From Squalus acanthias (lineage: Eukaryota), in assembly GCA_030390025.1 (NCBI GenBank), contig JASTWF010000033.1, positions 2,358,001-2,422,000 on the forward strand: a stretch of DNA of 64,000 bases, read 5' to 3'. Below, piece by piece: positions 844-38,060 of the stretch. Under the pieces are notes generated by a model that saw only the letters and a list, made by a program, of their open reading frames with translations, was not told the origin of the DNA and ran no database searches. The position numbers were made by a program, and so were the translations under genes. The number at the start of each line of letters is the position of its first letter. The stretch's first letter is position 1.

Positions 844-846
844 CAG

Positions 847-2575: not shown

Positions 2576-2626
2576 CTAAAGGATCAGAGCACGAATGCAG
2601 AAATGAATATCGTCATTCAAAAACAG

Positions 2627-11512: not shown

Positions 11513-11585
11513 CGCCCGAACAGGGACTTGAACCCTGGACCCTCAGATTAAAAGTCTGATGCTCTACCGACTGAGCTATCCGGGC
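11513..11585 (-). tRNA. tRNA-Lys-TTT: tRNA-Lys(TTT), copy 7
   Basis: Identical to copy 1. Confidence 0.97.
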
Positions 11586-13291: not shown

Positions 13292-13364
13292 CGCCCGAAC
13301 AGGGACTTGAACCCTGGACCCTCAGATTAAAAGTCTGATGCTCTACCGACTGAGCTATCCGGGC
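13292..13364 (-). tRNA. tRNA-Lys-TTT: tRNA-Lys(TTT), copy 8
   Basis: Identical to copy 1. Confidence 0.97.
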
Positions 13365-15073
13365 ACTTGCTGACTCAATCTCACAAAAGGACTTTCATTG
13401 GCTGCAGTGCATCATTGCACCTTCGACAAATTCCATTTTCTTGTCCATAATCCAGCCTGTGCAGCTCATTTCTCCCACAAATCCAGTTTAACTGCCTCAA
13501 ACCGGCTTCACGCCAGAAATATTCTCCCTCTCACAAGCGACATGCTCTTTAGCAGTGGCGTCAAATGTGACAACTGCCGTCCCTCAAATATCTGTATTGG
13601 ATCTTCAACTTTTCACCGTATTTACGATTGACTCGGATGGAGCAATTGAGCGATGTAGATCCAAGTTTGAAGATCGCACTAAGTTAGAAGGTCCGGTCGT
13701 AGTGCAAATGGGAACGGGAGCAAACCAAAGGGACAGAGACAGTCGGAGTAAGTCGGCAAAACAAAAGGCAAATCGAGTTCACTGTGCCCAAGTGTGACTG
13801 CATCCACCTTGCAACATTATGAGATAGTTCGGAGTATTTTCTAAATAATTGGAAGCCTATTAACTGTTGAGGAGTAAAGAGGTTTATGAGCCCCAGTTCA
13901 CAAATCATTAGTAGCTGGCAGACATGGAGCAAAATACAGTTTTATTGACCTGGTTAGGAAATTGTTTGCGCGACAGGAGACGCATTTTACGGATAATGAT
14001 CTGTTACTTTATTTGGCAGGATATGACGAGTGCCTGTCCGTGAGGGATCTCTTATGTGGCCTCATCTATTCACCGATTTTATTAACGACTTACTTGATGG
14101 GATTGAGAGCCAAACATTCAAGTTTAATGATGACAAAATAGATAGGCGGCATTATAAGCAGTACAGGTGGAAGCAAGAAATTTGCCCAGATATTCATCGA
14201 TTATGTGAATGGGCAAATCTGTGGCAAATTGATTGAAATATTAGCGAAATGTGATGTCATCCACTTCGGAAATAAAAAGGGGCTTTTAGAATACACTCTA
14301 TACAATGTTAAGCTGGAAACAGTTGAGATCCAAATAGACTTAAGGGTCCATGTACATATATCATTTAATGGTCATGGACAGGTACAGAAAAGAATGAAAA
14401 AGGCTGAATGAAAGGTGATACTTATGTCTATAGGATGACAATATAAGGGGGAGAAATTATGCAACAGCCATACAAAGCACTGGTTAGACCACACCTGGAG
14501 TACTGTGTGCAGTTCTGGGCATCACACCTTAGTATTAGGCTTAAAAAGTGAAGCGTAGATTTACCAGAATGATACACAGAGTCCAAGGGACAAATTACAA
14601 TGGGAGATTGCACAAACTAGGGATATATTCCTTGGAATTTAAATGCTGACGTGGTGATTTGATTGAAGTATTCACGATATTAGGTGGAACTGATAGTGTC
14701 GATAGAGCGAAGCTATTTCCGATGATTGGCCCGCCTAGGAGTACGGGACACAGACTCAACATTAGTTCCAAGCCTTTCAGGAGAGAAGTTAGGAAAGGCT
14801 TCTACATGGAATGAGTGGCAGAAATTTGTAACACACTTCCGCAAACAGCATTTAAATCTGGGTCAGTTGGCAATGTTAAACTTGAGATTGACAGATGTTG
14901 GTTAACCAAAGTATTAAGGAATCTGGAGCAAAGGGATGCAAACGGAGTTCGATCGCAGATCCAATTGAACGGCAGAAAGGCTCGAGCGGTTAAAATGCCT
15001 TGTTCTGTTGTTATTCTCATTGCTGAAGGATCAGAGCACGAATGCAGAAATGAATATCGTCATTCAAAAACAG

Positions 15074-15146
15074 CGCCCGAACAGGGACTTGAACCCTGGA
15101 CCCTCAGATTAAAAGTCTGATGCTCTACCGACTGAGCTATCCGGGC
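15074..15146 (-). tRNA. tRNA-Lys-TTT: tRNA-Lys(TTT), copy 9
   Basis: Identical to copy 1. Confidence 0.97.
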
Positions 15147-16852
15147 ACTTGCTGACTCAATCTCACAAAAGGACTTTCATTGGCTGCAGTGCATCATTGC
15201 ACCTTCGACAAATTCCATTTTCTTGTCCATAATCCAGCCTGTGCAGCTCATTTCTCCCACAAATCCAGTTTAACTGCCTCAAACCGGCTTCACGCCAGAA
15301 ATATTCTCCCTCTCACAAGCGACATGCTCTTTAGCAGTGGCGTCAAATGTGACAACTGCCGTCCCTCAAATATCTGTATTGGATCTTCAACTTTTCACCG
15401 TATTTACGATTGACTCGGATGGAGCAATTGAGCGATGTAGATCCAAGTTTGAAGATCGCACTAAGTTAGAAGGTCCGGTCGTAGTGCAAATGGGAACGGG
15501 AGCAAACCACAGGGACAGAGACAGTCGGAGTAAGTCGGCAAAACAAAAGGCAAAACGAGTTCACTGTGCCCAAGTGTGACTGCATCCACCTTGCAACATT
15601 ATGAGATAGTTCGGAGTATTTTCTAAATAATTGGAACCAATTAACTGTTGAGGAGTAAAGAGGTTTATGAGCCCCAGTTCACAAATCATTAGTAGCTGGC
15701 AGACATGGAGCAAAATACAGTTTTATTGACCTGGTTAGGAAATTGTTTGCGCGACAGGAGACGCATTTTACGGATAATGATCTGTTACTTTATTTGGCAG
15801 GATATGACGAGTGCCTGTCCGTGAGGGATCTCTTATGTGGCCTCATCTATTCACCGATTTTATTAACGACTTACTTGATGGGATTGAGAGCCAAACATTC
15901 AAGTTTAATGATGACAAAATAGATAGGCGGCATTATAAGCAGTACAGGTGGAAGCAAGAAATTTGCCCAGATATTCATCGATTATGTGAATGGGCAAATC
16001 TGTGGCAAATTGATTTAAATATTAGCGAAATGTGATGTCATCCACTTCGGAAATAAAAAGGGGCTTTTAGAATACACTCTATACAATGTTAAGCTGGAAA
16101 CAGTTGAGATCCAAATAGACTTAAGGGTCCATGTACATATATCATTTAATGGTCATGGACAGGTACAGAAAGAATGAAAAAGGCTGAATGAAAGGTGATA
16201 CTTATGTCTATAGGATGACAATATAAGGGGGAGAAATTATGCAACAGCCATACAAAGCACTGGTTAGACCACACCTGGAGTACTGTGTGCAGTTCTGGGC
16301 ATCACACCTTAGTATTAGGCTTAAAAAGTGAAGCGTAGATTTACCAGAATGATACACAGAGTCCAAGGACAAATTACAATGGGAGATTGCACAAACTAGG
16401 GATATATTCCTTGGAATTTAAATGCTGACGTGGTGATTTGATTGAAGTATTCACGATATTAGGTGGAACTGATAGTGTCGATAGAGCGAAGCTATTTCCG
16501 ATGATTGGCCCGCCTAGGAGTACGGGACACAGACTCAACATTAGTTCCAAGCCTTTCAGGAGAGAAGTTAGGAAAGGCTTCTACATGGAATGAGTGGCAG
16601 AAATTTGTAACACACTTCCGCAAACAGCATTTAAATCTGGGTCAGTTGGCAATGTTAAAGTTGAGATTGACAGATGTTGGTTAACCAAAGTATTAAGGAA
16701 TCTGGAGCAAAGGGATGCAAACGGAGTTCGATCGCAGATCCAATTGAACGGCAGAAAGGCTCGAGCGGTTAAAATGCCTTGTTCTGTTGTTATTCTCATT
16801 GCTGAAGGATCAGAGCACGAATGCAGAAATGAATATCGTCATTCAAAAACAG

Positions 16853-16925
16853 CGCCCGAACAGGGACTTGAACCCTGGACCCTCAGATTAAAAGTCTGAT
16901 GCTCTACCGACTGAGCTATCCGGGC
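16853..16925 (-). tRNA. tRNA-Lys-TTT: tRNA-Lys(TTT), copy 10
   Basis: Identical to copy 1. Confidence 0.97.
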
Positions 16926-18619
16926 ACTTGCTGACTCAATCTCACAAAAGGACTTTCATTGGCTGCAGTGCATCATTGCACCTTCGACAAATTCCATTTT
17001 CTTGTCCATAATCCAGCCTGTGCAGCTCATTTCTCCCACAAATCCAGTTTAACTGCCTCAAACCGGCTTCAGGCCAGAAATATTCTCCCTCTCACAAGCG
17101 ACATGCTCTTTAGCAGTGGCGTCAAATGTGACAACTGCCGTCCCTCAAATATCTGTATTGGATCTTCAACTTTTCACCGTATTTACGATTGACTCGGATG
17201 GAGCAATTGAGCGATGTAGATCCAAGTTTGAAGATCGCACTAAGTTAGAAGGTCCGGTCGTAGTGCAAATGGGAACAGGAGCAAACCAAAGGGACAGAGA
17301 CAGTCGGAGTAAGTCGGCAAAACAAAAGGCAAAACGAGTTCACTGTGCATCCACCTTGCAACATTATGAGATAGTTCGGAGTATTTTCTAAATAATTGGA
17401 ACCAATTAACTGTTGAGGAGTAAAGAGGTTTATGAGCCCCAGTTCACAAATCATTAGTAGCTGGCAGACATGGAGCAAAATACAGTTTTATTGACCTGGT
17501 TAGGAAATTGTTTGCGCGACAGGAGACGCATTTTACGGATAATGATCTGTTACTTTATTTGGCAGGATATGACGAGTGCCGTCCGTGAGGGATCTCTTAT
17601 GTGGCCTCATCTATTCACCGATTTTATTAACGACTTACTTGATGGGATTGAGAGCCAAACATTCAAGTTTAATGATGACAAAATAGATAGGCGGCATTAT
17701 AAGCAGTACAGGTGGAAGCAAGAAATTTGCCCAGATATTCATCGATTATGTGAATGGGCAAATCTGTGGCAAATTGATTGAAATATTAGCGAAATGTGAT
17801 GTCATCCACTTCGGAAATAAAAAGGGGCTTTTAGAATACACTCTATACAATGTTAAGCTGGAAACAGTTGAGATCCAAATAGACTTAAGGGTCCATGTAC
17901 ATATATCATTTAATGGTCATGGACAGGTACAGAAAAGAATGAAAAAGGCTGAATGAAAGGTGATACTTATGTCTATAGGATGACAATATAAGGGGGAGAA
18001 ATTATGCAACAGCAATACAAAGCACTGGTTAGGACCACACCTGGAGTACTGTGTGCAGTTCTGGGCATCACACCTTAGTATTAGGCTTAAAAAGTGAAGC
18101 GTAGATTTACCAGAATGATACACAGAGTCCAAGGGACAAATTACAATGGGAGATTGCACAAACTAGGGATATATTCCTTGGAATTTAAATGCTGACGTGG
18201 TGATTTGATTGAAGTATTCACGATATTAGGTGGAACTGATAGTGTCGATAGAGCGAAGCTATTTCCGATGATTGGCCCGCCTAGGAGTACGGGACACAGA
18301 CTCAACATTAGTTCCAAGCCTTTCAGGAGAGAAGTTTGGAAAGGCTTCTTCATGGAATGAGTGGCAGAAATTTGTAACACACTTCCGCAAACAGCATTTA
18401 AATCTGGGTCAGTTGGCAATGTTAAATTTGAGATTGACAGATGTTGGTTAACCAAAGTATTAAGGAATCTGGAGCAAAGGGATGCAAACGGAGTTCGATC
18501 GCAGATCCAATTGAACGGCAGAAAGGCTCGAGCGGTTAAAATGCCTTGTTCTGTTGTTATTCTCATTGCTGAAGGATCAGAGCACGAATGCAGAAATGAA
18601 TATCGTCATTCAAAAACAG

Positions 18620-18692
18620 CGCCCGAACAGGGACTTGAACCCTGGACCCTCAGATTAAAAGTCTGATGCTCTACCGACTGAGCTATCCGGGC
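18620..18692 (-). tRNA. tRNA-Lys-TTT: tRNA-Lys(TTT), copy 11
   Basis: Identical to copy 1. Confidence 0.97.
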
Positions 18693-20399
18693 ACTTGCTG
18701 ACTCAATCTCACAAAAGGACTTTCATTGGCTGCAGTGCATCATTGCACCTTCGACAAATTCCATTTTCTTGTCCATAATCCAGCCTGTGCAGCTCATTTC
18801 TCCCACAAATCCAGTTTAACTGCCTCAAACCGGCTTCAGGCCAGAAATATTCTCCCTCTCACAAGCGACATGCTCTTTAGCAGTGGCGTCAAATGTGACA
18901 ACTGCCGTCCCTCAAATATCTGTATTGGATCTTCAACTTTTCACCGTATTTACGATTGACTCGGATGGAGCAATTGAGCGATGTAGATCCAAGTTTGAAG
19001 ATCGCACTAAGTTAGAAGGTCCGGTCGTAGTGCAAATGGGAACGGGAGCAAACCAAAGGGACAGAGACAGTCGGAGTAAGTCGGCAAAACAAAAGGCAAA
19101 ACGAGTTCACTGTGCCCAAGTGTGACTGCATCCACCTTGCAACATTATGAGATAGTTCGGAGTATTTTCTAAATAATTGGAACCAATTAACTGTTGAGGA
19201 GTAAAGAGGTTTATGAGCCCCAGTTCACAAATCATTAGTAGCTGGCAGACATGGAGCAAAATACAGTTTTATTGACCTGGTTAGGAAATTGTTTGCGCGA
19301 CAGGAGACGCATTTTACGGATAATGATCTGTTACTTTATTTGGCAGGATATGACGAGTGCCGTCCGTGAGGGATCTCTTATGTGGCCTCATCTATTCACC
19401 GATTTTATTAACGATTTACTTGATGGGATTGAGAGCCAAACATTCAAGTTTAATGATGACAAAATAGATAGGCGGCATTATAAGCAGTACAGGTGGAAGC
19501 AAGAAATTTGCCCAGATATTCATCGATTATGTGAATGGGCAAATCTGTGGCAAATTGATTGAAATATTAGCGAAATGTGATGTCATCCACTTCGGAAATA
19601 AAAAGGGGCTTTTAGAATACACTCTATACAATGTTAAGCTGGAAACAGTTGAGATCCAAATAGACTTAAGGGTCCATGTACATATATCATTTAATGGTCA
19701 TGGACAGGTACAGAAAAGAATGAAAAAGGCTGAATGAAAGGTGATACTTATGTCTATAGGATGACAATATAAGGGGGAGAAATTATGCAACAGCCATACA
19801 AAGCACTGGTTAGACCACACCTGGAGTACTGTGTGCAGTTCTGGGCATCACACCTTAGTATTAGGCTTAAAAAGTGAAGCGTAGATTTACCAGAATGATA
19901 CACAGAGTCCAAGGGACAAATTACAATGGGAGATTGCACAAACTAGGGATATATTCCTTGGAATTTAAATGCTGACGTGGTGATTTGATTGAAGTATTCA
20001 CGATATTAGGTGGAACTGATAGTGTCGATAGAGCGAAGCTATTTCCGATGATTGGCCCGCCTAGGAGTACGGGACACAGACTCAACATTAGTTCCAAGCC
20101 TTTCAGGAGAGAAGTTTGGAAAGGCTTCTTCATGGAATGAGTGGCAGAAATTTGTAACACACTTCCGCAAACAGCATTTAAATCTGGGTCAGTTGGCAAT
20201 GTTAAACTTGAGATTGACAGATGTTGGTTAACCAAAGTATTAAGGAATCTGGAGCAAAGGGATGCAAACGGAGTTCGATCGCAGATCCAATTGAACGGCA
20301 GAAAGGCTCGAGCGGTTAAAATGCCTTGTTCTGTTGTTATTCTCATTGCTGAAGGATCAGAGCACGAATGCAGAAATGAATATCGTCATTCAAAAACAG

Positions 20400-20472
20400 C
20401 GCCCGAACAGGGACTTGAACCCTGGACCCTCAGATTAAAAGTCTGATGCTCTACCGACTGAGCTATCCGGGC
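20400..20472 (-). tRNA. tRNA-Lys-TTT: tRNA-Lys(TTT), copy 12
   Basis: Identical to copy 1. Confidence 0.97.
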
Positions 20473-22173
20473 ACTTGCTGACTCAGTCTCACAAAAGGAC
20501 TTTCATTGGCTGCAGTGCATCATTGCACCTTCGACAAATTCCATTTTCTTGTCCATAATCCAGCCTGTGCAGCTCATTTCTCCCACAAATCCAGTTTAAC
20601 TGCCTCAAACCGGCTTCAGGCCAGAAATATTCTCCCTCTCACAAGCGACATGCTCTTTAGCAGTGGCGTCAAATGTGACAACTGCCGTCCCTCAAATATC
20701 TGTATTGGATCTTCAACTTTTCACCGTATTTACGATTGACTCGGATGGAGCAATTGAGCGATGTAGATCCAAGTTTGAAGATCGCACTAAGTTAGAAGGT
20801 CCGGTCGTAGTGCAAATGGGAACGGGAGCAAACCAAAGGGACAGAGACAGTCGGAGTAAGTCGGCAAAACAAAAGGCAAAACGAGTTCACTGTGCCCAAG
20901 TGTGACTGCATCCACCTTGCAACATTATGAGATAGTTCGGAGTATTTTCTAAATAATTGGAACCAATTAACTGTTGAGGAGTAAAGAGGTTTATGAGCCC
21001 CAGTTCACAAATCATTAGTAGCTGGCAGACATGGAGCAAAATACAGTTTTATTGACCTGGTTAGGAAATTGTTTGCGCGACAGGAGACGCATTTTACGGA
21101 TAATGATCTGTTACTTTATTTGGCAGGATATGACGAGTGCCGTCCGTGAGGGATCTCTTATGTGGCCTCATCTATTCACCGATTTTATTAACGACTTACT
21201 TGATGGGATTGAGAGCCAAACATTCAAGTTTAATGATGACAAAATAGATAGGCGGCATTATAAGCAGTACAGGTGGAAGCAAGAAATTTGGCCAGATATT
21301 CATCGATTATGTGAATAGGCAAATCTGTGGCAAATTGATTGAAATATTAGCGAAATGTGATGTCATCCACTTCGGAAATAAAAAGGGGCTTTTAGAATAC
21401 ACTCTATACAATGTTAAGCTGGAAACAGTTGAGATCCAAATAGACTTAAGGGTCCATGTACATATATCATTTAATGGTCATGGACAGGTACAGAAAAGAA
21501 TGAAAAAGGCTGAATGAAAGGTGATACTTATGTCTATAGGATGACAATATAAGGGGGAGAAATTATGCAACAGCCATACAAAGCACTGGTTAGACCACAC
21601 CTGGAGTACTGTGTGCAGTTCTGGGCATCACACCTTAGTATTAAAAAGTGAAGCGTAGATTTACCAGAATGATACACAGAGTCCAAGGGACAAATTACAA
21701 TGGGAGATTGCACAAACTAGGGATATATTCCTTGGAATTTAAATGCTGACGTGGTGATTTGATTGAAGTATTCACGATATTAGGTGGAACTGATAGTGTC
21801 GATAGAGCGAAGCTATTTCCGATGATTGGCCCGCCTAGGAGTACGGGACACAGACTCAACATTAGTTCCAAGCCTTTCAGGAGAGAAGTTTGGAAAGGCT
21901 TCTTCATGGAATGAGTGGCAGAAATTTGTAACACACTTCCGCAAACAGCATTTAAATCTGGGTCAGTTGGCAATGTTAAACTTGAGATTGACAGATGTTG
22001 GTTAACCAAAGTATTAAGGAATCTGGAGCAAAGGGATGCAAACGGAGTTCGATCGCAGATCCAATTGAACGGCAGAAAGGCTCGAGCGGTTAAAATGCCT
22101 TGTTCTGTTGTTATTCTCATTGCTGAAGGATCAGAGCACGAATGCAGAAATGAATATCGTCATTCAAAAACAG

Positions 22174-22246
22174 CGCCCGAACAGGGACTTGAACCCTGGA
22201 CCCTCAGATTAAAAGTCTGATGCTCCACCGACTGAGCTATCCGGGC
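22174..22246 (-). tRNA. tRNA-Lys-TTT: tRNA-Lys(TTT), copy 13, A21G variant
   Basis: tgctccaccg instead of tgctctaccg (22226); D-loop position 21. Confidence 0.9.
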
Positions 22247-23953
22247 ACTTGCTGACTCAATCTCACAAAAGGACTTTCATTGGCTGCAGTGCATCATTGC
22301 ACCTTCGACAAATTCCATTTTCTTGTCCATAATCCAGCCTGTGCAGCTCATTTCTCCCACAAATCCAGTTTAACTGCCTCAAACCGGCTTCAGGCCAGAA
22401 ATATTCTCCCTCTCACAAGCGACATGCTCTTTAGCAGTGGCGTCAAATGTGACAACTGCCGTCCCTCATATATCTGTATTGGATCTTCAACTTTTCACCG
22501 TATTTACGATTGACTCGGATGGAGCAATTGAGCGATGTAGATCCAAGTTTGAAGATCGCACTAAGTTAGAAGGTCCGGTCGTAGTGCAAATGGGAACGGG
22601 AGCAAACCAAAGGGACAGAGACAGTCGGAGTAAGTCGGCAAAACAAAAGGCAAAACGAGTTCACTGTGCCCAAGTGTGACTGCATCCACCTTGCAACATT
22701 ATGAGATAGTTCGGAGTATTTTCTAAATAATTGGAACCAATTAACTGTTGAGGAGTAAAGAGGTTTATGAGCCCCAGTTCACAAATCATTAGTAGCTGGC
22801 AGACATGGAGCAAAATACAGTTTTATTGACCTGGTTAGGAAATTGTTTGCGCGACAGGAGACGCATTTTACGGATAATGATCTGTTACTTTATTTGGCAG
22901 GATATGACGAGTGCCGTCCGTGAGGGATCTCTTATGTGGCCTCATCTATTCACCGATTTTATTAACGACTTACTTGATGGGATTGAGAGCCAAACATTCA
23001 AGTTTAATGATGACAAAATAGATAGGCGGCATTATAAGCAGTACAGGTGGAAGCAAGAAATTTGCCCAGATATTCATCGATTATGTGAATGGGAAAATCT
23101 GTGGCAAATTGATTGAAATATTAGCGAAATGTGATGTCATCCACTTCGGAAATAAAAAGGGGCTTTTAGAATACACTCTATACAATGTTAAGCTGGAAAC
23201 AGTTGAGATCCAAATAGACTTAAGGGTCCATGTACATATATCATTTAATGGTCATGGACAGGTACAGAAAAGAATGAAAAAGGCTGAATGAAAGGTGATA
23301 CTTATGTCTATAGGATGACAATATAAGGGGGAGAAATTATGCAACAGCCATACAAAGCACTGGTTAGACCACACCTGGAGTACTGTGTGCAGTTCTGGGC
23401 ATCACACCTTAGTATTAGGCTTAAAAAGTGAAGCGTAGATTTACCAGAATGATACACAGAGTCCAAGGGACAAATTACAATGGGAGATTGCACAAACTAG
23501 GGATATATTCCTTGGAATTTAAATGCTGACGTGGTGATTTGATTGAAGTATTCACGATATTAGGTGGAACTGATAGTGTCGATAGAGCGAAGCTATTTCC
23601 GATGATTGGCCCGCCTAGGAGTACGGGACACAGACTCAACATTAGTTCCAAGCCTTTCAGGAGAGAAGTTTGGAAAGGCTTCTTCATGGAATGAGTGGCA
23701 GAAATTTGTAACACACTTCCGCAAACAGCATTTAAATCTGGGTCAGTTGGCAATGTTAAACTTGAGATTGACAGATGTTGGTTAACCAAAGTATTAAGGA
23801 ATCTGGAGCAAAGGGATGCAAACGGAGTTCGATCGCAGATCCAATTGAACGGCAGAAAGGCTCGAGCGGTTAAAATGCCTTGTTCTGTTGTTATTCTCAT
23901 TGCTGAAGGATCAGAGCACGAATGCAGAAATGAATATCGTCATTCAAAAACAG

Positions 23954-24026
23954 CGCCCGAACAGGGACTTGAACCCTGGACCCTCAGATTAAAAGTCTGA
24001 TGCTCTACCGACTGAGCTATCCGGGC
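23954..24026 (-). tRNA. tRNA-Lys-TTT: tRNA-Lys(TTT), copy 14
   Basis: Identical to copy 1. Confidence 0.97.
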
Positions 24027-25733
24027 ACTTGCTGACTTAATCTCACAAAAGGACTTTCATTGGCTGCAGTGCATCATTGCACCTTCGACAAATTCCATTT
24101 TCTTGTCCATAATCCAGCCTGTGCAGCTCATTTCTCCCACAAATCCAGTTTAACTGCCTCAAACCGGCTTCAGGCCAGAAATATTCTCCCTCTCACAAGC
24201 GACATGCTCTTTAGCAGTGGCGTCAAATGTGACAACTGCCGTCCCTCAAATATCTGTATTGGATCTTCAACTTTTCACCGTATTTACGATTGACTCGGAT
24301 GGAGCAATTGAGCGATGTAGATCCAAGTTTGAAGATCGCACTAAGTTAGAAGGTCCGGTCGTAGTGCAAATGGGAACGGGAGCAAACCAAAGGGACAGAG
24401 ACAGTCGGAGTAAGTCGGCAAAACAAAAGGCAAAACGAGTTCACTGTGCCCAAGTGTGACTGCATCCACCTTGCAACATTATGAGATAGTTCGGAGTATT
24501 TTCTAAATAATTGGAACCAATTAACTGTTGAGGAGTAAAGAGGTTTATGAGCCCCAGTTCACAAATCATTAGTAGCTGGCAGACATGGAGCAAAATACAG
24601 TTTTATTGACCTGGTTAGGAAATTGTTTGCGCGACAGGAGACGCATTTTACGGATAATGATCTGTTACTTTATTTGGCAGGATATGACGAGTGCCGTCCG
24701 TGAGGGATCTCTTATGTGGCCTCATCTATTCACCGATTTTATTAACGACTTACTTGATGGGATTGAGAGCCAAACATTCAAGTTTAATGATGACAAAATA
24801 GATAGGCGGCATTATAAGCAGTACAGGTGGAAGCAAGAAATTTGCCCAGATATTCATCGATTATGTGAATGGGCAAATCTGTGGCAAATTGATTGAAATA
24901 TTAGCGAAATGTGATGTCATCCACTTCGGAAATAAAAAGGGGCTTTTAGAATACACTCTATACAATGTTAAGCTGGAAACAGTTGAGATCCAAATAGACT
25001 TAAGGGTCCATGTACATATATCATTTAATGGTCATGGACAGGTACAGAAAAGAATGAAAAAGGCTGAATGAAAGGTGATACTTATGTCTATAGGATGACA
25101 ATATAAGGGGGAGAAATTATGCAACAGCCATACAAAGCACTGGTTAGACCACACCTGGAGTACTGTGTGCAGTTCTGGGCATCACACCTTAGTATTAGGC
25201 TTAAAAAGTGAAGCGTAGATTTACCAGAATGATACACAGAGTCCAAGGGACAAATTACAATGGGAGATTGCACAAACTAGGGATATATTCCTTGGAATTT
25301 AAATGCTGACGTGGTGATTTGATTGAAGTATTCACGATATTAGGTGGAACTGATAGTGTCGATAGAGCGAAGCTATTTCCGATGATTGGCCCGCCTAGGA
25401 GTACGGGACACAGACTCAACATTAGTTCCAAGCCTTTCAGGAGAGAAGTTTGGAAAGGCTTCTTCATGGAATGAGTGGCAGAAATTTGTAACACACTTCC
25501 GCAAACAGCATTTAAATCTGGGTCAGTTGGCAATGTTAAACTTGAGATTGACAGATGTTGGTTAACCAAAGTATTAAGGAATCTGGAGCAAAGGGATGCA
25601 AACGGAGTTCGATCGCAGATCCAATTGAACGGCAGAAAGGCTCGAGCGGTTAAAATGCCTTGTTCTGTTGTTATTCTCATTGCTGAAGGATCAGAGCACG
25701 AATGCAGAAATGAATATCGTCATTCAAAAACAG

Positions 25734-25806
25734 CGCCCGAACAGGGACTTGAACCCTGGACCCTCAGATTAAAAGTCTGATGCTCTACCGACTGAGCTAT
25801 CCGGGC
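25734..25806 (-). tRNA. tRNA-Lys-TTT: tRNA-Lys(TTT), copy 15
   Basis: Identical to copy 1. Confidence 0.97.
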
Positions 25807-27513
25807 ACTTGCTGACTCAATCTCACAAAAGGACTTTCATTGGCTGCAGTGCATCATTGCACCTTCGACAAATTCCATTTTCTTGTCCATAATCCAGCCT
25901 GTGCAGCTCATTTCTCCCACAAATCCAGTTTAACTGCCTCAAACCGGCTTCACGCCAGAAATATTCTCCCTCTCACAAGCGACATGCTCTTTAGCAGTGG
26001 CGTCAAATGTGACAACTGCCGTCCCTCAAATATCTGTATTGGATCTTCAACTTTTCACCGTATTTACGATTGACTCGGATGGAGCAATTGAGCGATGTAG
26101 ATCCAAGTTTGAAGATCGCACTAAGTTAGAAGGTCCGGTCGTAGTGCAAATGGGAACGGGAGCAAACCAAAGGGACAGAGACAGTCGGAGTAAGTCGGCA
26201 AAACAAAAGGCAAAACGAGTTCACTGTGCCCAAGTGTGACTGCATCCACCTTGCAACATTATGAGATAGTTCGGAGTATTTTCTAAATAATTGGAAGCTA
26301 TTAACTGTTGAGGAGTAAAGAGGTTTATGAGCCCCTGTTCACAAATCATTAGTAGCTGGCAGACATGGAGCAAAATACAGTTTTATTGACCTGGTTAGGA
26401 AATTGTTTGCGCGACAGGAGACGCATTTTACGGATAATGATCTGTTACTTTATTTGGCAGGATATGACGAGTGCTGTCCGTGAGGGATCTCTTATGTGGC
26501 CTCATCTATTCACCGATTTTATTAACGACTTACTTGATGGGATTGAGAGCCAAACATTCAAGTTTAATGATGACAAAATAGATAGGCGGCATTATAAGCA
26601 GTACAGGTGGAAGCAAGAAATTTGCCCAGATATTCATCGATTATGTGAATGGGCAAATCTGTGGCAAATTGATTTAAATATTAGCGAAATGTGATGTCAT
26701 CCACTTCGGAAATAAAAAAGGGGCTTTTAGAATACACTCTATACAATGTTAAGCTGGAAACAGTTGAGATCCAAATAGACTTAAGGGTCCATGTACATAT
26801 ATCATTTAATGGTCATGGACAGGTACAGAAAAGAATGAAAAAGGCTGAATGAAAGGTGATACTTATGTCTATAGGATGACAATATAAGGGGGAGAAATTA
26901 TGCAACAGCCATACAAAGCACTGGTTAGACCACACCTGGAGTACTGTGTGCAGTTCTGGGCATCACACCTTAGTATTAGGCTTAAAAAGTGAAGCGTAGA
27001 TTTACCAGAATGATACACAGAGTCGAAGGGACAAATTACAATGGGAGATTGCACAAACTAGGGATATATTCCTTGGAATTTAAATGCTGACGTGGTGATT
27101 TGATTGAAGTATTCACGATATTAGGTGGAACTGATAGTGTCGATAGAGCGAAGCTATTTCCGATGATTGGCCCGTCTAGGAGTACGGGACACAGACTCAA
27201 CATTAGTTCCAAGCCTTTCAGGAGAGAAGTTTGGAAAGGCTTCTTCATGGAATGAGTGGCAGAAATTTGTAACACACTTCCGCAAACAGCATTTAAATCT
27301 GGGTCAGTTGGCAATGTTAAAGTTGAGATTGACAGATGTTGGTTAACCAAAGTATTAAGGAATCTGGAGCAAAGGGATGCAAACGGAGTTCGATCGCAGA
27401 TCAATTGAACGGCAGAAAGGCTCGAGCGGTTAAAATGCCTTGTTCTGTTGTTATTCTCATTGCTGAAGGATCAGAGCACGAATGCAGAAATGAATATCGT
27501 CATTCAAAAACAG

Positions 27514-27586
27514 CGCCCGAACAGGGACTTGAACCCTGGACCCTCAGATTAAAAGTCTGATGCTCTACCGACTGAGCTATCCGGGC
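27514..27586 (-). tRNA. tRNA-Lys-TTT: tRNA-Lys(TTT), copy 16
   Basis: Identical to copy 1. Confidence 0.97.
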
Positions 27587-29293
27587 ACTTGCTGACTCAA
27601 TCTCACAAAAGGACTTTCATTGGCTGCAGTGCATCATTGCACCTTCGACAAATTCCATTTTCTTGTCCATAATCCAGCCTGTGCAGCTCATTTCTCCCAC
27701 AAATCCAGTTTAACTGCCTCAAACCGGCTTCACGCCAGAAATATTCTCCCTCTCACAAGCGACATGCTCTTTAGCAGTGGCGTCAAATGTGACAACTGCC
27801 GTCCCTCAAATATCTGTATTAGATCTTCAACTTTTCACCGTATTTACGATTGACTCGGATGGAGCAATTGAGCGATGTAGATCCAAGTTTGAAGATCGCA
27901 CTAAGTTAGAAGGTCCGGTCGTAGTGCAAATGGGAACGGGAGCAAACCAAAGAGACAGAGACAGACGGAGTAAGTCGGCAAAACAAAAGGCAAATCGAGT
28001 TCACTGTGCCCAAGTGTGACTGCATCCACCTTGCAACATTATGAGATAGTTCGGAGTATTTTCTAAATAATTGGAAGCAATTAACTGTTGAGGAGTAAAG
28101 AGGTTTATGAGCCCCAGTTCACAAATCATTAGTAGCTGGCAGACATGGAGCAAAATACAGTTTTATTGACCTGGTTAGGAAATTGCTTGCGCGACAGGAG
28201 ACGCATTTTACGGATAATGATCTGTTACTTTATTTGGCAGGATATGACGAGTGCCGTCCGTGAGGGATCTCTTATGTGGCCTCATCTATTCACCGATTTT
28301 ATTAACGACTTACTTGATGGGATTGAGAGCCAAACATTCAAGTTTAATGATGACAAAATAGATAGGCGGCATTATAAGCAGTACAGGTGGAAGCAAGAAA
28401 TTTGCCCAGATATTCATCGATTATGTGAATGGGCAAATCTGTGGCAAATTGATTTAAATATGAGCGAAATGTGATGTCATCCACTTCGGAAATAAAAAAG
28501 GGCTTTTAGAATACACTCTATACAATGTTAAGCTGGAAACAGTTGAGATCCAAATAGACTTAAGGGTCCATGTACATATATCATTTAATGGTCATGGACA
28601 GGTACACAAAAGAATGAAAAAGGCTGAATGAAAGGTGATACTTATGTCTATAGGATGACAATATAAGGGGGAGAAATTATGCAACAGCCATGCAAAGCAC
28701 TGGTTAGACCACACCTGGAGTACTGTGTGCAGTTCTGGGCATCACACCTTAGTATTCGGCTTAAAAAGTGAAGCGTAGATTTACCAGAATGATACACAGA
28801 GTCCAAGGGATCAATTACAATGGGAGATTGCACAAACTAGGGATATATTCCCTGGAATTTAAATGCTGACGTGGTGATTTGATTGAAGTATTCACGATAT
28901 TAGGTGGAACTGATAGTGTCGATAGAGCGAAGCTATTTCCGATGATTGGCCCGCCTAGGAGTACGGGACACAGACTCAACATTAGTTCCAAGCCTTTCAG
29001 GAGAGAAGTTAGGAAAGGCTTCTACATGGAATGAGTGGCAGAAATTTGTAACACACTTCCGCAAACAGCATTTAAATCTGGGTCAGTTGGCAATGTTAAA
29101 CTTGAGATTGACAGATGTTGGTTAACCAAAGTATTAAGGAATCTGGAGCAAAGGGATGCAAACGGAGTTCGATCGCAGATCCAATTGAACGGCAGAAAGG
29201 CTCAAGCAGTTAAAATGCCTTGTTCTGTTGTTATTCTCATTGCTGAAGGATCAGAGCACGAATGCAGAAATGAATATCGTCATTCAAAAACAG

Positions 29294-29366
29294 CGCCCGA
29301 ACAGGGACTTGAACCCTGGACCCTCAGATTAAAAGTCTGATGCTCTACCGACTGAGCTATCCGGGC
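29294..29366 (-). tRNA. tRNA-Lys-TTT: tRNA-Lys(TTT), copy 17
   Basis: Identical to copy 1; 5' flank differs. Confidence 0.97.
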
Positions 29367-31073
29367 ACTTGCTGGCTGAATCTCACAAAAGGACTTTCAT
29401 TGGCTGCAGTGCATCATTGCACCTTCGGCAAATTCCATTTTCTGGTCCATAATCCAGCCTGTGCAGCTCATTTCTCCCACAAATCCAGTTTAACTGCCTC
29501 AAACCGGCTTCAGGCCAGAAATATTCTCCCTCTCACAAGCGACATGCTCTTTAGCAGTGGCGTCAAATGTGACAACTGCCGTCCCTCAAATATCTGTATT
29601 GGATCTTCAACTTTTCACCGTATTTACGATTGACTCGGATGGAGCAATTGAGCGATGTAGATCCAAGTTTGAAGATCGCACTAAGTTAGAAGGTCCGGTC
29701 GTAGTGCAAATGGGAACGGGAGCAAACCAAAGGGACAGAGACAGACGGAGTAAGTCGGCAAAACAAAAGGCAAATCGAGTTCACTGTGCCCAAGTGTGAC
29801 TGCATCCACCTTGCAACATTATGAGATAGTTCGGAGTATTTTCTAAATAATTGGAAGCAATTAACTGTTGAGGAGTAAAGAGGTTTATGAGCCCCAGTTC
29901 ACAAATCATTAGTAGCTGGCAGACATGGAGCAAAATACAGTTTTATTGACCTGGTTAGGAAATTGTTTGCGCGACAGGAGACGCATTTTACGGATAATGA
30001 TCTGTTACTTTATTTGGCAGGATATGACGAGTGCCGTCCGTGAGGGATCTCTTATGTGGCCTCATCTATTCACCGATTTTATTAACGACTTACTTGATGG
30101 GATTGAGAGCCAAACATTCAAGTTTAATGATGACAAAATAGATAGGCGGCATTATAAGCAGTACAGGTGGAAGCAAGAAATTTGCCCAGATATTCATCGA
30201 TTATGTGAATGGGCAAATCTGTGGCAAATTGATTTAAATATTAGCGAAATGTGATGTCATCCACTTCGGAAATAAAAAAGGGCTTTTAGAATACACTCTA
30301 TACAATGTTAAGCTGGAAACAGTTGAGATCCAAATAGACTTAAGGGTCCATGTACATATATCATTTAATGGTCATGGACAGGTACACAAAAGAATGAAAA
30401 AGGCTGAATGAAAGGTGATACTTATGTCTATAGGATGACAATATAAGGGGGAGAAATTATGCAACAGCCATGCAAAGCACTGGTTAGACCACACCTGGAG
30501 TACTGTGTGCAGTTCTGGGCATCACACCTTAGTATTCGGCTTAAAAAGTGAAGCGTAGATTTACCAGAATGATACACAGAGTCCAAGGGATCAATTACAA
30601 TGGGAGATTGCACAAACTAGGGATATATTCCCTGGAATTTAAATGCTGACGTGGTGATTTGATTGAAGTATTCACGATATTAGGTGGAACTGATAGTGTC
30701 GATAGAGCGAAGCTATTTCCGATGATTGGCCCGCCTAGGAGTACGGGACACAGACTCAACATTAGTTCCAAGCCTTTCAGGAGAGAAGTTTGGAAAGGCT
30801 TCTTCATGGAATGAGTGGCAGAAATTTGTAACACACTTCCGCAAACAGCATTTAAATCTGGGTCAGTTGGCAATGTTAAACTTGAGATTGACAGATGTTG
30901 GTTAACCAAAGTATTAAGGAATCTGGAGCAAAGGGATGCAAACGGAGTTCGATCGCAGATCCAATTGAACGGCAGAAAGGCTCAAGCAGTTAAAATGCCT
31001 TGTTCTGTTGTTATTCTCATTGCTGAAGGATCAGAGCACGAATGCAGAAATGAATATCGTCATTCAAAAACAG

Positions 31074-31146
31074 CGCCCGAACAGGGACTTGAACCCTGGA
31101 CCCTCAGATTAAAAGTCTGATGCTCTACCGACTGAGCTATCCGGGC
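31074..31146 (-). tRNA. tRNA-Lys-TTT: tRNA-Lys(TTT), copy 18
   Basis: Identical to copy 1; 5' flank as copy 17. Confidence 0.97.
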
Positions 31147-32849
31147 ACTTGCTGGCTGAATCTCACAAAAGGACTTTCATTGGCTGCAGTGCATCATTGC
31201 ACCTTCGACAAATTCCATTTTCTTGTCCATAATCCAGCCTGTGCAGCTCATTTCTCCCACAAATCCAGTTTAACTGCCTCAAACCGGCTTCAGGCCAGAA
31301 ATATTCTCCCTCTCACAAGCGACATGCTCTTTAGCAGTGGCGTCAAATGTGACAACTGCCGTCCCTCAAATATCTGTATTGGATCTTCAACTTTTCACCG
31401 TATTTACGATTGACTCGGATGGAGCAATTGAGCGATGTAGATCCAAGTTTGAAGATCGCACTAAGTTAGAAGGTCCGGTCGTAGTGCAAATGGGAACGGG
31501 AGCAAACCAAAGGGACAGAGACAGTCGGAGTAAGTCGGCAAAACAAAAGGCAAAACGAGTTCACTGTGCCCAAGTGTGACTGCATCCACCTTGCAACATT
31601 ATGAGATAGTTCGGAGTATTTTCTAAATAATTGGAACCAATTAACTGTTGAGGAGTAAAGAGGTTTATGAGCCCCAGTTCACAAATCATTAGTAGCTGGC
31701 AGACATGGAGCAAAATACAGTTTTATTGACCTGGTTAGGAAATTGTTTGCGCGACAGGAGACGCATTTTACGGATAATGATCTGTTACTTTATTTGGCAG
31801 GATATGACGAGTGCCGTCCGTGAGGGATCTCTTATGTGGCCTCATCTATTCACCGATTTTATTAACGACTTACTTGATGGGATTGAGAGCCAAACATTCA
31901 AGTTTAATGATGACAAAATAGATAGGCGGCATTATAAGCAGTACAGGTGGAAGCAAGAAATTTGCCCAGATATTCATCGATTATGTGAATGGGCAAATCT
32001 GTGGCAAATTGATTTAAATATTAGCGAAATGTGATGTCATCCACTTCGGAAATAAAAAAGGGCTTTTAGAATACACTCTATACAATGTTAAGCTGGAAAC
32101 AGTTGAGATCCAAATAGACTTAAGGGTCCATGTACATATATCATTTAATGGTCATGGACAGGTACAGAAAAGAATCAAAAATGCTGAATGAAAGGTGATA
32201 CTTATGTCTATAGGATGACAATATAAGAGGGAGAAATTATGCAACAGCCATACAAAGCACTGGTTAGACCACACCTGGAGCACTGTGTGCAGTTCTGGGC
32301 ATCACAACTTCGTATTAGGCTAAAAAAGTGAAGTGTAGATTTACCAGAATGATACACAGAGTCCAGGACAATTACAATGGGAGATTGCACAAACTAGGGA
32401 TATATTCCCTGGAATTTAGAAGCTTACGTGGTGATTTGATTGAAGTATTCACGATATTAAGTGGAACTGATAGTGTCGATAGAGCGAAGCTATTTCCGAT
32501 GATTGGCCCGTCCAGGAGTACGGGACACAGACTCAACATTAGTTCCAAAGCTTTCAGGAGAGAAGTTTGGAAAGGCTTCTACATGGAATGAGTGGCAGAA
32601 ATTTGTAACACACTTCCGCAAACAGCACTTAAATCTGGATCAGTTGGCAATGTTAAACTTGAGATTGACAGATGTTGGTTAACCAAAGTATTAAGGATCT
32701 GGAGCAAAGGGATGCAAACGGAGTTCGATCGCAGATCCAATTGAACGGCAGAAAGGCTCGAGCGGTTAAAATGCCTTGTTCTGTTGTTAATCTCATTGCT
32801 AAAGGATCAGAGCACGAATGCAGAAATGAATATCGTCATTCAAAAACAG

Positions 32850-32922
32850 CGCCTGAACAGGGACTTGAACCCTGGACCCTCAGATTAAAAGTCTGATGCT
32901 CTACCGACTGAGCTATCCGGGC
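32850..32922 (-). tRNA. tRNA-Lys-TTT: tRNA-Lys(TTT), copy 19, G69A variant (C4:A69 mismatch)
   Basis: gcctgaac instead of gcccgaac at 32854, a CpG transition. Confidence 0.85.
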
Positions 32923-34634
32923 ACTTGCTGACTCAATCTCACAAAAGGACTTTCATTGGCTGCAGTGCATCATTGCACCTTCGACAAATTCCATTTTCTT
33001 GTCCATAATCCAGCCTGTGCAGCTCATTTCTCCCACAAATCCAGTTTAACTGCCTCAAACCGGCTTCAGGCCAGAAATATTCTCCCTCTCACAAGCGACA
33101 TGCTCTTTAGCAGTGGCGTCAAATGTGACAACTGCCGTCCCTCAAATATCTGTATTGGATCTTCAACTTTTCACCGTATTTACGATTGACTCGGATGGAG
33201 CAATTGAGCGATGTAGATCCAAGTTTGAAGATCGCACTAAGTTAGAAGGTCCGGTCGTAGTGCAAATGGGAACGGGAGCAAACCAAAGGGACAGAGACAG
33301 TCGGAGTAAGTCGGCAAAACAAAAGGCAAAACGAGTTCACTGTGCCCAAGTGTGACTGCATCCACCTTGCAACATTATGAGATAGTTCGGAGTATTTTCT
33401 AAATAATTGGAACCAATTAACTGTTGAGGAGTAAAGAGGTTTATGAGCCCCAGTTCACAAATCATTAGTAGCTGGCAGACATGGAGCAAAATACAGTTTT
33501 ATTGACCTGGTTAGGAAATTGTTTGCGCGACAGGAGACGCAGTTTTCGGATAATGATCTGTTACTTTATTTGGCAGGATATGACGAGTGCCGTCCGTGAC
33601 GGATCTCTTATGTGGCCTCATCTATTCACCGATTTTATTAACGACTTACTTGATGGGATTGAGAGCCAAACATTCAAGTTTAATGATGACAAAATAGATA
33701 GGCGGCATTATAAGCAGTACAGGTGGAAGCAAGAAATTTGCCCAGATATTCATAGATTATGTGAATGGGCAAATCTGTGGCAAATTGATTTAAATATTAG
33801 CGAAGTGTGATGTCATCCACTTCGGAACTAAAAAGGGGCGTTTAGAATACACTGTATACAATGTTAAGCTGGAAACAGTTGAGATCCAAATAGACTTAAG
33901 GGTGCATGTACATATATCATTTAATGGTCATGGACAGGTACAGAAAAGAATGAAAAAGGCTGAATGAAAGGTGATACTTATGTCTATAGGATGACAATAT
34001 AAGGGGGAGAGATTATGCAACAGCCATACAAAGCACTGGTTAGACCACACCTGGAGTACTGTGTGCAGTTCTGGGCATCACAGCTTAGGGGGTAATATTA
34101 GGCTTAAAAAGTGAAGCGCAGATTTACCAGAATGATACACAGAGTCCAAGGGACAAATTACAATGGGAGCTTGCAGAAACTAAGGATATATTATTTGGAA
34201 TTTAGAAGCTTACGTGATTTGATTGAAGTATTCACGATATTAAGTGGAACTGATAGTGTCGATAGAGCGAATCTATTTCCGATGATCGGCCCGTCTTGGA
34301 GTACGGGACACAGACTCAACATTAGTTCCAAGCCTTTCAGGAGATAAGTTAGGAAAGGCTTCTGCATGGAATGGGTGGCAGAAATTTGTAACACACTTCC
34401 GCAAAAAGCACTTAAAGCTGGGTCAATTGGCAATGTTAAACTTGAGATTGATAGATGTTGGTTATCCAAAGATATTGATGGATCTGGAGCAAAGGGATGC
34501 AAACGGAGTTCGATCACAGATCTAATTGAACGGCAGAAAGGCCCGAGCGTTTAAAAGGCCCGGTCTTGTTGTTATTCTCATTGCTAAAGGATCAGAGCAC
34601 GAATGCAGAAATGAATATCGTGATTTAAGTGCAG

Positions 34635-34707
34635 CGCCCGACCAGGGACTTGAACCCTGGACTCTCAGATTACAAGTCTGTTTTTCTCCCGACTGATTTA
34701 TCCGGGC
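34635..34707 (-). pseudogene. tRNA-Lys-derived pseudogene, copy 20 (anticodon TGT)
   Basis: GCCCGGATAAATCAGTCGGGAGAAAAACAGACTTGTAATCTGAGAGTCCAGGGTTCAAGTCCCTGGTCGGGCG: D stem and A box damaged, T5 terminator lost, B box intact. Confidence 0.9.
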
Positions 34708-34932
34708 TCTTGCTGACTGAACCTCACAAAAGGACTTTCATTGGCTGCAGTGCATCATTGCACCTTCTACAATTTCCATTTTCCTGTCCATAATCCAGCC
34801 TGTACAGCTCATTTCTCCCACAAATCCAGACTGACTGCCTCAAACCGGCTTCACGTCAGAAATATTCTCCCTCTCACAACCGACATGCTCTTTATCATTG
34901 GCGTCAGATGTGACAACTGCCGTCCCTCAAAT

Positions 34933-35374
34933 TTCTCGCCCCAAATCTCAGAGTAACTCTTCTCACTTTTCCCATCTCCCTGTACTATTCCGATTACTGC
35001 ATGAGCTCCCGGAGCCCCTTACCTATCCGAAAGACTGTTCGCAAACTTTTCTCTAAAATATATATCTGCCATTTCGTTTTTACTTTCCAACCCGATAAGA
35101 ATGCCTTGTAACATTATAGACTGAACCCGTCCTCAGCACGTTTCGAAAACAACAACCCTGACTCGGCTCGCCAATTTGTAGAGATTCACGTATCTTTGGT
35201 AAACAGGATCGAGTGCAAACCAATATCGTGGGTATATTGTGTTTAATCGGAGTTTAGGACGAATATAACAAACTAGTAAAACAGCAAAAACATACGACCG
35301 TGACAAGCAGCTGGTATCAGAACCGATCAGCATGCGTAAACAGTTCTCTGGCCTCTGGCCTCTTCTCCTTATCG

Positions 35375-35409
<35 letters not shown>

Positions 35410-36287
35410 TCTCCCTCTCTCGAACCTCCAATGCTGAGCATGGGCTCGCTCTCAAAAGAGCGTTCGACCAGCCCAACTTCTGTTCGGCTCTCCCCTCCAC
35501 CGTCTGTGGGCAAGCCCTTGGAGTTTCACTTTTTATTCTCCTTTTAGGGTTGGGCCTGAGGCCAAGTTATTGACAAGACCAGTTTACCTGTAGAGGTTCC
35601 TCTAAAACTTCATCAACCAATGGCAGCTCAAGTTCTTTTTCTTGGATCTTGGATGAACGCCTTCCCCAAAAGAGGGTCTCATCACTTCATCCAATTTATC
35701 TTTCTTGTTTTTACATTTAAAGGTTCCTCCTTTGGAATCCATCTTATCTCCTTTGAAAATATCCTCCTTAACCCAGCAAGTATAAGCCCCGGCCCTGTCC
35801 CTCTTAATCATGGCCCCAGCCAGAGCTGTTGCACATTAGCCAGTCGCTATCTCACCTTCATCTCGCAAATGGCCCATTCTAAGATGGATACCTTAGCCTC
35901 CTCAAATGTCTTTCATTCTATGCCTATTCCTAATTCACTTTTAATTATCTTGAAAAGCAGTTCTGCTGAACAAATTCCAAATTCTATCTGTGGAGATTAT
36001 AATATGGTTATTAGTAACAATGCAAGAAACAGGTTGGGCCTTCACTGGCCAAATTAAAGATACATAATCAAAGTCAAAACCCTAACTTACAAACCACAGA
36101 TAACGTGCCTGACAACACCATCGTATGGGCCCCCGTGTGGAATGTTTATGTTTCCCCTACTCTGACTGATTAAAAAGACTGTCTCAAATTCTAATGCATG
36201 CTTTCCAGGAAAACGGAACTTATCATTTCAACACAGCATTATTCATGCAGCCATATTCATTTTTAGGCACCCCTAGTCTCGAAGACA
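34933..36287 (-). mobile_element. Truncated ERV-like element: 5' LTR (35177-36287), PBS and leader
   Basis: Minus strand TGTCTTC...TCTCTACA, then AAT, then TGGCGAGCC. AATAAAA TATA-like motif near 35531-35537 and ATTAAA at 35242-35247. No second LTR in the window, so the LTR outer end is inferred. Confidence 0.6.
35156..35173 (-). promoter_or_regulatory. Primer binding site, tRNA-Arg(ACG)-like
   Basis: TGGCGAGCCGAGTCAGGG versus the complement of the tRNA-Arg(ACG) 3' end, TGGCGAGCCAGCCAGGAG: 9 perfect pairs, one bulge, then pairing with one G:U. Confidence 0.65.
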
Positions 36288-38060
36288 TTGCACTGTTCTA
36301 TTGCATTGCAAATAACAATCATATTGCAAAGCGATATTCCATTGCATTGTGCTATTGCCTTGCAAATGACTATTACATTGAACGTTATATTCCATTGCAA
36401 TGTTCTATTGCAATACAAATATCTACGTTATTCCTAAGTTATATTCCATTGCAATGTGCTATTGCATTGTAAATGACTATTATAATGCAAAGTGATGTTC
36501 CATTGAAATGTGCTATTGCATTGCAAATGACGATTATATTGCAGTGATATTTCATTGCAATGATCTATTGCATTGCAAATGACTATTATATGGCAAAGTG
36601 ATATTCCATTGCAATGTTCTGTTGCATTGCAAAAGACTATTATATTGCAAAGTGATATTCCATTGCAATATGCTATTGCATTGCAAATGACGAATATATT
36701 GCTAAGTGATATTCCATAGCAATATTGTATTACATTACAAATGTCTACTGTACTGTTAAGTGATATTCTATTGCGATATTTTATTGCATTGCAAATGACT
36801 ATTATACTGCAAAGCGATATTCCATTGCAATGTGCTATTGCACTGCAGATAATGATTATATTTTAAAGCGATATTACATTACAATTTGCCATTGCATTGC
36901 AAATAGACTATTATATTGCAAAGTTATATTCCATTGAACTGTTCCATTGCATTGCCAATGACATTTATATTGCAAAGTGAAATTCCATTGCATTGTTACA
37001 ATGCTTTGCAAATTACGATTATATTGGAAATCGACATAATGACTATTATATTACAAAGTGATATTCCATTGCAATGTGCTATTGCATTGTAAATGACTAT
37101 TATAATGCAAAGTGATGTTCCATTGAAATGTGCTATTGCATTGCAAATGACGATTATATTGCAGTGATATTTCATTGCAATGATCTATTGCATTGCAAAT
37201 GACTATTATATGGCAAAGTGATATTCCATTGCAATGTTCTGTTGCATTGCAAAAGACTATTATATTGCAAAGTGATATTCCATTGCAATATGCTATTGCA
37301 TTGCAAATGACGAATATATTGCTAAGTGATATTCCATAGCAATATTGTATTACATTACAAATGTCTACTGTACTGTTAAGTGATATTCTATTGCGATATT
37401 TTATTGCATTGCAAATGACTATTATACTGCAAAGCGATATTCCATTGCAATGTGCTATTGCACTGCAGATAATGATTATATTTTAAAGCGATATTACATT
37501 ACAATTTGCCATTGCATTGCAAATAGACTATTATATTGCAAAGTTATATTCCATTGAACTGTTCCATTGCATTGCCAATGACATTTATATTGCAAAGTGA
37601 AATTCCATTGCATTGTTACAATGCTTTGCAAATTACGATTATATTGGAAATCGACATAATGACTATTATATTACAAAGTGATATTCCATTGCAATGTGCT
37701 ATTGCAATGCAAATTCATATTATTTGGCAAAGCGACATTGCATTACAATGTGCTGTTGCATTGCAAATGACAATTATATTTTAAATTGATATTCCATTGC
37801 AATAAGCAATTGCATTGCCAATTACGATTTTAGTTGAAAGCGATATTCCATTACAATGAGAAATTGCGTTGCAGATTACTATTATGTTCCAAATTTATAT
37901 TCCATGGCAATTTGCTATTGCATTGCAAATGAGTATTATATTGCAAAGTGATATTCCTTTGCAATGTACGATTGCATTGTTATGTGCCATTGCATGTCAA
38001 ATGACGAATTTATTTAAAAGTGATATTCCATTGCAATATTCTGTTGCATTGTAAATAACT
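36288..38060. repeat. 54-bp AT-rich satellite, block 1
   Basis: Consensus attatattgcaaagtgat-attccattgcaatgtgct-attgcattgcaaatgact. Confidence 0.95.

Follow-up and report, generated by a model that had tools for sequence, protein, structure and literature searches.

A truncated LTR retroelement 5' end from Squalus acanthias with a short open reading frame running into a predicted splice donor

The window (the whole 64,000-nt stretch of Squalus acanthias DNA that was analyzed, to which all positions refer unless stated otherwise) holds an LTR, a primer-binding site (PBS) and a leader on the minus strand, and in this leader a short upstream open reading frame (uORF) runs into a GTAAG motif. The layout recalls snakehead retrovirus (SnRV) and raises the question whether the leader ATG starts a spliced product, or whether the uORF meets an ordinary splice donor by accident. 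We tentatively favor the latter. We put a probability of roughly 0.42 on the locus being a truncated 5' end left by a single copy from a multi-copy LTR family (likely an endogenous retrovirus, ERV), with an ordinary major donor at 35022 and an incidental 17-codon uORF.

An LTR of a multi-copy family and its flanks

The first-pass annotation had described a TGT...ACA segment of about 1.1 kb on the minus strand containing AATAAA and ATTAAA, and we found all of these in place. TGT lies at 36287 and ACA at 35177, and the 5' LTR that they delimit (35177..36287) spans 1,111 bp. The ATTAAA at 35247 (35242..35247), located 71 nt ahead of the LTR end, is the likeliest polyadenylation signal, and the AATAAA at 35537 (35537-35532) would be the alternative. 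A further ATTAAA lies at 35945, and a (GA)n microsatellite occupies 35378..35421. By eye, 9 of the 11 positions in a U5 motif (35204..35214) agree with the tRNA-Arg(ACG) T-arm complement, so that a U5-T-loop contact is possible; the tRNA sequence, also used for the PBS pairing below, was taken from an excerpt of PMC7757669.

Evidence on further copies comes from contigs of four public runs (X5, X6, X9 and X20) aligned to the window. Parts of the stretch were present in 20 of the 22 runs listed (10 organism labels, 9 studies; best share, 0.39), and these four were the ones checked in detail. In run X9, 42 contigs depart from the LTR at 35177; their flanks are diverse and agree poorly (0.36), which pins down where the LTR ends on its 3' side. 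Thereby, one of the two boundaries that the first-pass annotation expected to recur in other copies was borne out, while 36287 gained no support: no loose end on its outer side was found among the 24 loose-end rows listed out of 539. Since the TG at 36287-36286 also fits the adjoining 54-bp satellite, the 5' boundary stays putative. Summed contig depth in most LTR bins was several-fold or more above that of the leader bins in all four runs examined, as expected from paired and solo LTRs, contig depth not being equal to copy number. The segment 35177..36287 is a genuine LTR of a multi-copy family. Its combination of a multi-copy terminal repeat ending in CA with a tRNA PBS directly following identifies an LTR retroelement.

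The element stops at 34934, 14 codons into a candidate gag, where it abuts a minus-strand tandem array (1..34936) with 20 units of 1.78 kb in the window, each unit carrying one tRNA-Lys(UUU) gene. Comparison of the two sequences places a 3-nt microhomology at the break point (34934..34936). In an Rfam search, only tRNA-Lys genes scored above threshold; additional parts of the array unit presumably resemble LINE fragments. Measured against a mid-array unit, the one adjoining the break shows 94.8% identity and the other 18 show 98.3-99.6%, and divergence climbs toward the break. From this decay of the edge unit, we infer that the truncation is old. In this edge unit, the tRNA shows changes in its anticodon and in its D arm.

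Three diverged contigs (25 and 26 of X9, 1 of X20) align up to 34934 and extend beyond it by 18, 15 and 82 letters, respectively, which is consistent with other copies continuing where the window copy is cut. An X6 contig (34850-34963; organism label B) joins a decayed array unit to 27-30 nt of leader, at a depth of 7.4 compared with 8.9 for the leader contig. This hints that the array junction is real, perhaps repeated and common to another organism label, the overlap falling below the 31-nt bridging rule. After insertion, a deletion or an unequal exchange at the microhomology may have replaced everything downstream with the tRNA-Lys array, early enough that the edge unit could escape homogenization. 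What is left is a dead fragment of about 1.35 kb that has no coding capacity and is likely an ERV relic.

On its other side, the LTR 5' end adjoins a 54-bp AT-rich satellite (36286..37979), within which about 570 bp seem to be duplicated exactly at a 620-bp spacing (37500-36881 and 36880-36261 region). A young Gypsy-type element lies at about 40336-43190 on the plus strand. Of 192 aligned sites, its LTRs disagree at 2; the ten bases right after its 5' LTR show complementarity to the element's own LTR, and its ORF (40536-41954) reaches RNase H and an integrase zinc finger, with no RT match. We considered this element as the missing body of the truncated copy and dropped it, since it inserted separately and has another LTR (about 190 bp compared with 1,111 bp). 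An ORF end at about 62380-62450 on the minus strand resembles, we assume, the N-terminus of a fish GPCR.

As the first-pass annotation had stated, no pol is present in the fragment, and our searches recovered no gag, pol or env. A degenerate PBS pattern hit at least 120 loci in viral contigs (from 11 of 64 parts), including one 26-nt match at the PBS itself and no relative, and a U5 pattern scan gave 29 loci, none reaching past about 23 nt. The exact LTR-PBS junction had 0 matches in metagenomes, and none of these three scans recovered a linked copy. Searching the viral contigs with the SnRV RT returned SnRV alone. Protein searches with the three leader frames gave 5, 4 and 35 candidates, none at an E-value up to 10. 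Against 1.84 billion representatives, the leader frames obtained two marginal matches (E about 6e-4), both inside unrelated repeat-rich proteins, and they matched nothing in Pfam or in the Atlas. Nothing credible emerged for Gag homology, for which a query of only 14 codons has weak power. Three short motifs of the window were not found in the supplement text of PMC4422223, where line breaks can hide matches, and topic searches, which cannot show absence, found no published description of this LTR family.

The primer-binding site and the leader

A 3-nt spacer, AAT (35174..35176), separates the LTR from the PBS (35156..35173), both on the minus strand. From 35173 onward, the site pairs with tRNA-Arg(ACG), although imperfectly, through 17 pairs with one bulge and G-U wobbles, so that both the spacer and the Arg-tRNA assignment of the first-pass annotation hold. 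The duplex with the tRNA 3' end amounts to -31.7 kcal/mol, compared with -41.3 for a perfect site, and is the strongest tRNA-Arg duplex among the 905 TGG sites in 34937-64000, the part of the window outside the array. The PBS is convincing because it sits 3 nt from the confirmed LTR end, and it is spanned without a gap by X6 contig 18. The second-strongest site (about 38105-38124, minus strand; -30.5 kcal/mol) lies at the end of a LINE-like segment with no known LTR beside it, and it shows how high the background of Arg-PBS-like pairing reaches.

The leader comprises 240 nt between the LTR and the break. Its ATG at 35072 stands, as noted before, in a good context and gives a hydrophilic 17-aa peptide (35019..35072, minus strand), whose frame is open into the predicted donor at phase 2. 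A second in-frame ATG at 35114, overlooked in the first-pass annotation, lengthens the uORF to 31 aa (35019..35114). A third leader ATG at 35002 was found in the window only, when compared with the contigs of the runs examined; being private to this copy, it indicates that ATGs do arise in the leader by decay. The predicted major splice donor (35017..35025, minus strand), with its GT at 35022-35021, matches 7 of 9 positions of the U1 consensus, and the next-best donor-like site in the leader matches 5 of 9. The uORF stop does overlap AG|GTAAG at this position, but it is no independent evidence. As GTAAG contains TAA, any frame that meets the donor at phase 2 stops there, which makes donor and stop one observation instead of two, and we dropped the stop as a separate argument. 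Downstream, the previously described ATG-GGA is present at 34975 and encodes an MG start; this candidate gag start, an ATG with 14 codons, spans 34934..34975 on the minus strand.

Neither form of the uORF contains a hydrophobic signal peptide. The 17-aa form has a GRAVY of -0.61 with 6 of 17 residues charged, and the 31-aa form, which has a short apolar start, a GRAVY of -0.25. Their best 11-residue hydropathy means are -0.10 and 1.25, respectively, compared with 2.95 for the SnRV leader peptide.

We evaluated the arrangement against 20,000 dinucleotide shuffles of the leader. AGGTAAG occurred in 4.4% of the shuffles, GTAAG in 35%. Among those with a donor, 23-26% also had an upstream ATG open for at least 10 codons, and 5.4-6.5% had one in strong context. 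The whole ATG-donor-stop arrangement with strong context was seen in 0.1% (AGGTAAG) or 0.8% (GTAAG). As a donor is to be expected in a retroviral leader, it is fairer to use the conditional figures, and the window had been selected for this pattern. Folding of the leader was no better than that of shuffles (z 0.21; SnRV leader, z 0.02), and the folds of a hairpin 3' of the donor and of U5 (z -1.07 to -1.87; antisense, -0.12) were not clearly significant.

Run contigs allow some comparison with other copies (difference rows listed, 40 of 208). As inferred from difference counts, both ATGs and the donor are retained in X5 contig 9 (2 differences over 179 nt, depth 352) and in X6 contig 18 (4 differences over 324 nt), but these contigs are nearly identical to the window and tell little about selection. 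One X5 contig (depth 142 of 956) misses a base at 35112. A base other than the G of the window at donor position -1 accounts for a depth of 732 out of 1085 in X5, 3.6 out of 12.4 in X6, 286 out of 286 in X9 and 2.5 out of 2.5 in X20, making the G of the window the minority allele in three of the four runs. This variation weakens the predicted donor but does not remove it. In X9, the stretch from 34934 to about 35100 is alignable at 80% or more, and depth falls at 35100-35149 (55 vs 205-324), a weak hint of constraint on the alignable block. X9 contig 26 differs at 22 places over 158 nt and X20 contig 1 at 20 over 127 nt, both free of gaps, but LTR contigs of like divergence are also often gap-free. 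None of the 15 joint rows listed, out of 31, showed a splice joint at the donor in X20, a run guessed to be RNA in which one contig (depth 2.5) covers the donor, and this is no evidence on splicing either way; a joint in X5 (34964-35168) falls away from the donor.

The same frame could also be read as coding sequence throughout. The ATG at 35072 (or 35114) would then be the true gag start, the stop at 35021-35019 would be damage or bypassed, and the ATG at 34975 would not belong to gag. The frame stays open for 28 further codons up to the break and has the best start context in the leader. However, 28 open codons arise by chance in about 1 of 4 cases, X5 contig 9 and X6 contig 18 also carry the stop (again judged from difference counts), and the frame searched with an X at the stop gave no credible homolog. 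We therefore regard this explanation as highly improbable.

An ordinary donor or the start of a spliced product

For comparison, we used record L121/L122 (10,688 nt), which we identify as SnRV from its gag, pol and env ORFs and from the same length given in an excerpt of PMC12193657. It was the one record returned by an exact Arg-PBS scan of viral contigs, its PBS being identical to the tRNA-Arg(ACG) 3' end complement used here as the target. In the record, AATAAA lies at 26 and CA at 82-83. The leader holds a single ATG at 180 that opens a hydrophobic 14-aa peptide (GRAVY 2.14, 1 of 14 residues charged) and a phase-2 donor at 221, whose TGA ends the unspliced frame. The acceptor at 6184 has the best pyrimidine tract of 8 candidates and is in phase with env. 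By eye, the start of the env main exon (L121 6184-6330) reads as an immunoglobulin-type domain. The first-pass annotation had distinguished SnRV by an Arg PBS and an env start codon ahead of gag and the common donor; the layout is indeed readable from the record, while the Arg PBS fails as a distinguishing mark, since HERV-W is Arg-primed too.

The window resembles SnRV in several respects. Both have a PBS of the tRNA-Arg(ACG) type, that is, the same isoacceptor, although the site in the window is imperfect, and both have an ATG ahead of the donor that is open at phase 2. The distance from PBS to ATG is 78 nt in SnRV and 84 nt in the window, and that from PBS to donor is 119 nt and 134 nt, respectively. 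In either leader, the unspliced uORF ends on the donor and the next ATG lies 3' of it. Other features differ. The SnRV leader contains a single ATG, compared with two ahead of the donor in the window, and the leader peptide is hydrophobic in SnRV but hydrophilic in the window. A perfect PBS with a 1-nt spacer stands against a bulged PBS with a 3-nt spacer, and an LTR of 518 bp (excerpt of PMC12193657) against one of 1,111 bp. Further, SnRV Gag lacks Gly2 and is presumably not myristylated (according to an excerpt of PMC2717909), in contrast to the MG start of the candidate gag in the window. Similarity of LTR and leader to SnRV was not significant (best blastn E 0.48, best tblastx E 0.09), and none need be expected in these regions.

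Thus, of the earlier proposal of a relic of an SnRV-related chondrichthyan retrovirus, the 5' end of a multi-copy LTR retroelement stands, but the SnRV signal peptide is absent and significant similarity is lacking. Kinship to SnRV is neither demonstrated nor excluded. Because the leader peptide does not pass as an SnRV-type signal peptide, membership among SnRV-type leaders is lowered more than the claim that the leader works in a similar way.

Such similar working would mean that the ATG at 35072 is the true start of a spliced product, probably Env, and that a first coding exon ahead of gag consists of its 16 codons and 2 further nt, as in SnRV and the insect ZAM/Beagle elements. The leader would then provide just a polar N-terminus, and the sequence 3' of the acceptor would encode the hydrophobic core of the signal. 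The window agrees with the SnRV record in order, spacing, phase and primer isoacceptor, and in that record the 6184 acceptor is in phase with env; a strong start context arises in only about 5-6% of shuffles given a donor; and the diverged X9 contig 26 and X20 contig 1 are free of gaps. Against this count the missing hydrophobic core, the second upstream ATG at 35114, the varying donor -1 base, the equally gap-free LTR contigs, the SnRV-clade elephant-shark element CmiERV1, which is without this layout, and the lack of significant similarity to SnRV. We consider a start exon possible but, on balance, doubtful.

If the donor is instead an ordinary one and the uORF incidental, as we prefer, the intact element would have been primed by tRNA-Arg for reverse transcription and would have made an unspliced gag-pol RNA and an env RNA spliced from the donor at 35022, with env starting at its own ATG 3' of the acceptor. 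The confirmed LTR end and the multi-copy state in all four runs examined speak for this, as do the hydrophilic uORF, the frequency of open upstream ATGs given a donor (23-26%) and the private ATG at 35002. What speaks against it is the rarity of a strong context given a donor (5.4-6.5%), the closeness of spacing, phase and isoacceptor to SnRV, the alignable block in X9, the ATGs and donor kept in X5 contig 9 and X6 contig 18, and the fact that our searches brought up no gag, pol or env.

As it stands, the locus adds one more shark-type LTR family in the form of a dead fragment. If the leader ATG starts Env, the SnRV gene layout would be no one-off among vertebrate retroviruses, and env annotations in such families would miss the first exon. 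That an abundant cartilaginous-fish family represents a second vertebrate lineage starting Env from a leader exon, with a charged segment in the leader and, unlike SnRV, the hydrophobic core after the acceptor, appears unlikely to us at present.

Comparison with known systems

Several features of the locus are shared well beyond the SnRV clade. HERV-W also uses a tRNA-Arg primer (excerpt of PMC11905727), although with another Arg isoacceptor sequence than the window. An Arg PBS therefore does not identify the SnRV clade, and we dropped it as a marker. Likewise, in the Drosophila errantiviruses ZAM and Beagle (Metaviridae), env is spliced from a short peptide exon ahead of gag, according to an excerpt of PMC12992720. 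These belong to an insect Ty3/Gypsy lineage, which shows that the layout has evolved repeatedly and cannot serve to mark kinship with SnRV.

Another reading is a non-retroviral LTR retrotransposon (Ty3/Gypsy or BEL) that would be Arg-primed and whose donor-like site and uORF would be due to chance or regulation. Gypsy elements of the MDG1 group use an Arg primer. They also bear ORFs ahead of gag (excerpt of PMC11952523), and TG...CA ends and AATAAA are common to animal Metaviridae and retroviruses, so that LTR end motifs do not separate the two (excerpt of PMC3601003); in addition, a bare GTAAG appeared in 35% of our shuffles. On the other hand, the spacer and leader donor of the window match both complete elephant-shark ERVs, its LTR far exceeds the roughly 190 bp of the Gypsy element in the window (a single example), and one screen, as excerpted, detected no errantivirus-like element in intact form when vertebrate genomes were searched (10.1101/2023.10.26.564294). 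We hold such an origin to be rather improbable, and a retroviral identity of the element to be quite probable.

A comparison within cartilaginous fish is offered by the elephant shark. Its CmiERV lineages I and II presumably have PBS types for Ser and Gln. Diverse ERVs, including those of the SnRV clade, are already known from cartilaginous fish (excerpt of PMC4422223). Like the window, elephant-shark CmiERV lineages I (SnRV clade) and II (epsilon-like) have TGT...ACA LTRs and a 3-nt spacer, and both complete elements carry a GTAAG donor-like site in the leader (PMC4422223; supplement, by eye). We dropped the 3-nt spacer as an SnRV marker; the SnRV record has 1 nt and both complete elephant-shark ERVs have 3 nt. 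Unlike the window, lineages I and II have no Arg(ACG) PBS, and no ATG precedes the first donor-like site that follows their PBS (PMC4422223). Since CmiERV1 belongs to the SnRV clade and is without it, the upstream-ATG layout is not a constant of that clade. Both complete elephant-shark ERVs combine the 3-nt spacer with an ATG-free stretch before GTAAG, which makes a leader donor the ordinary state.
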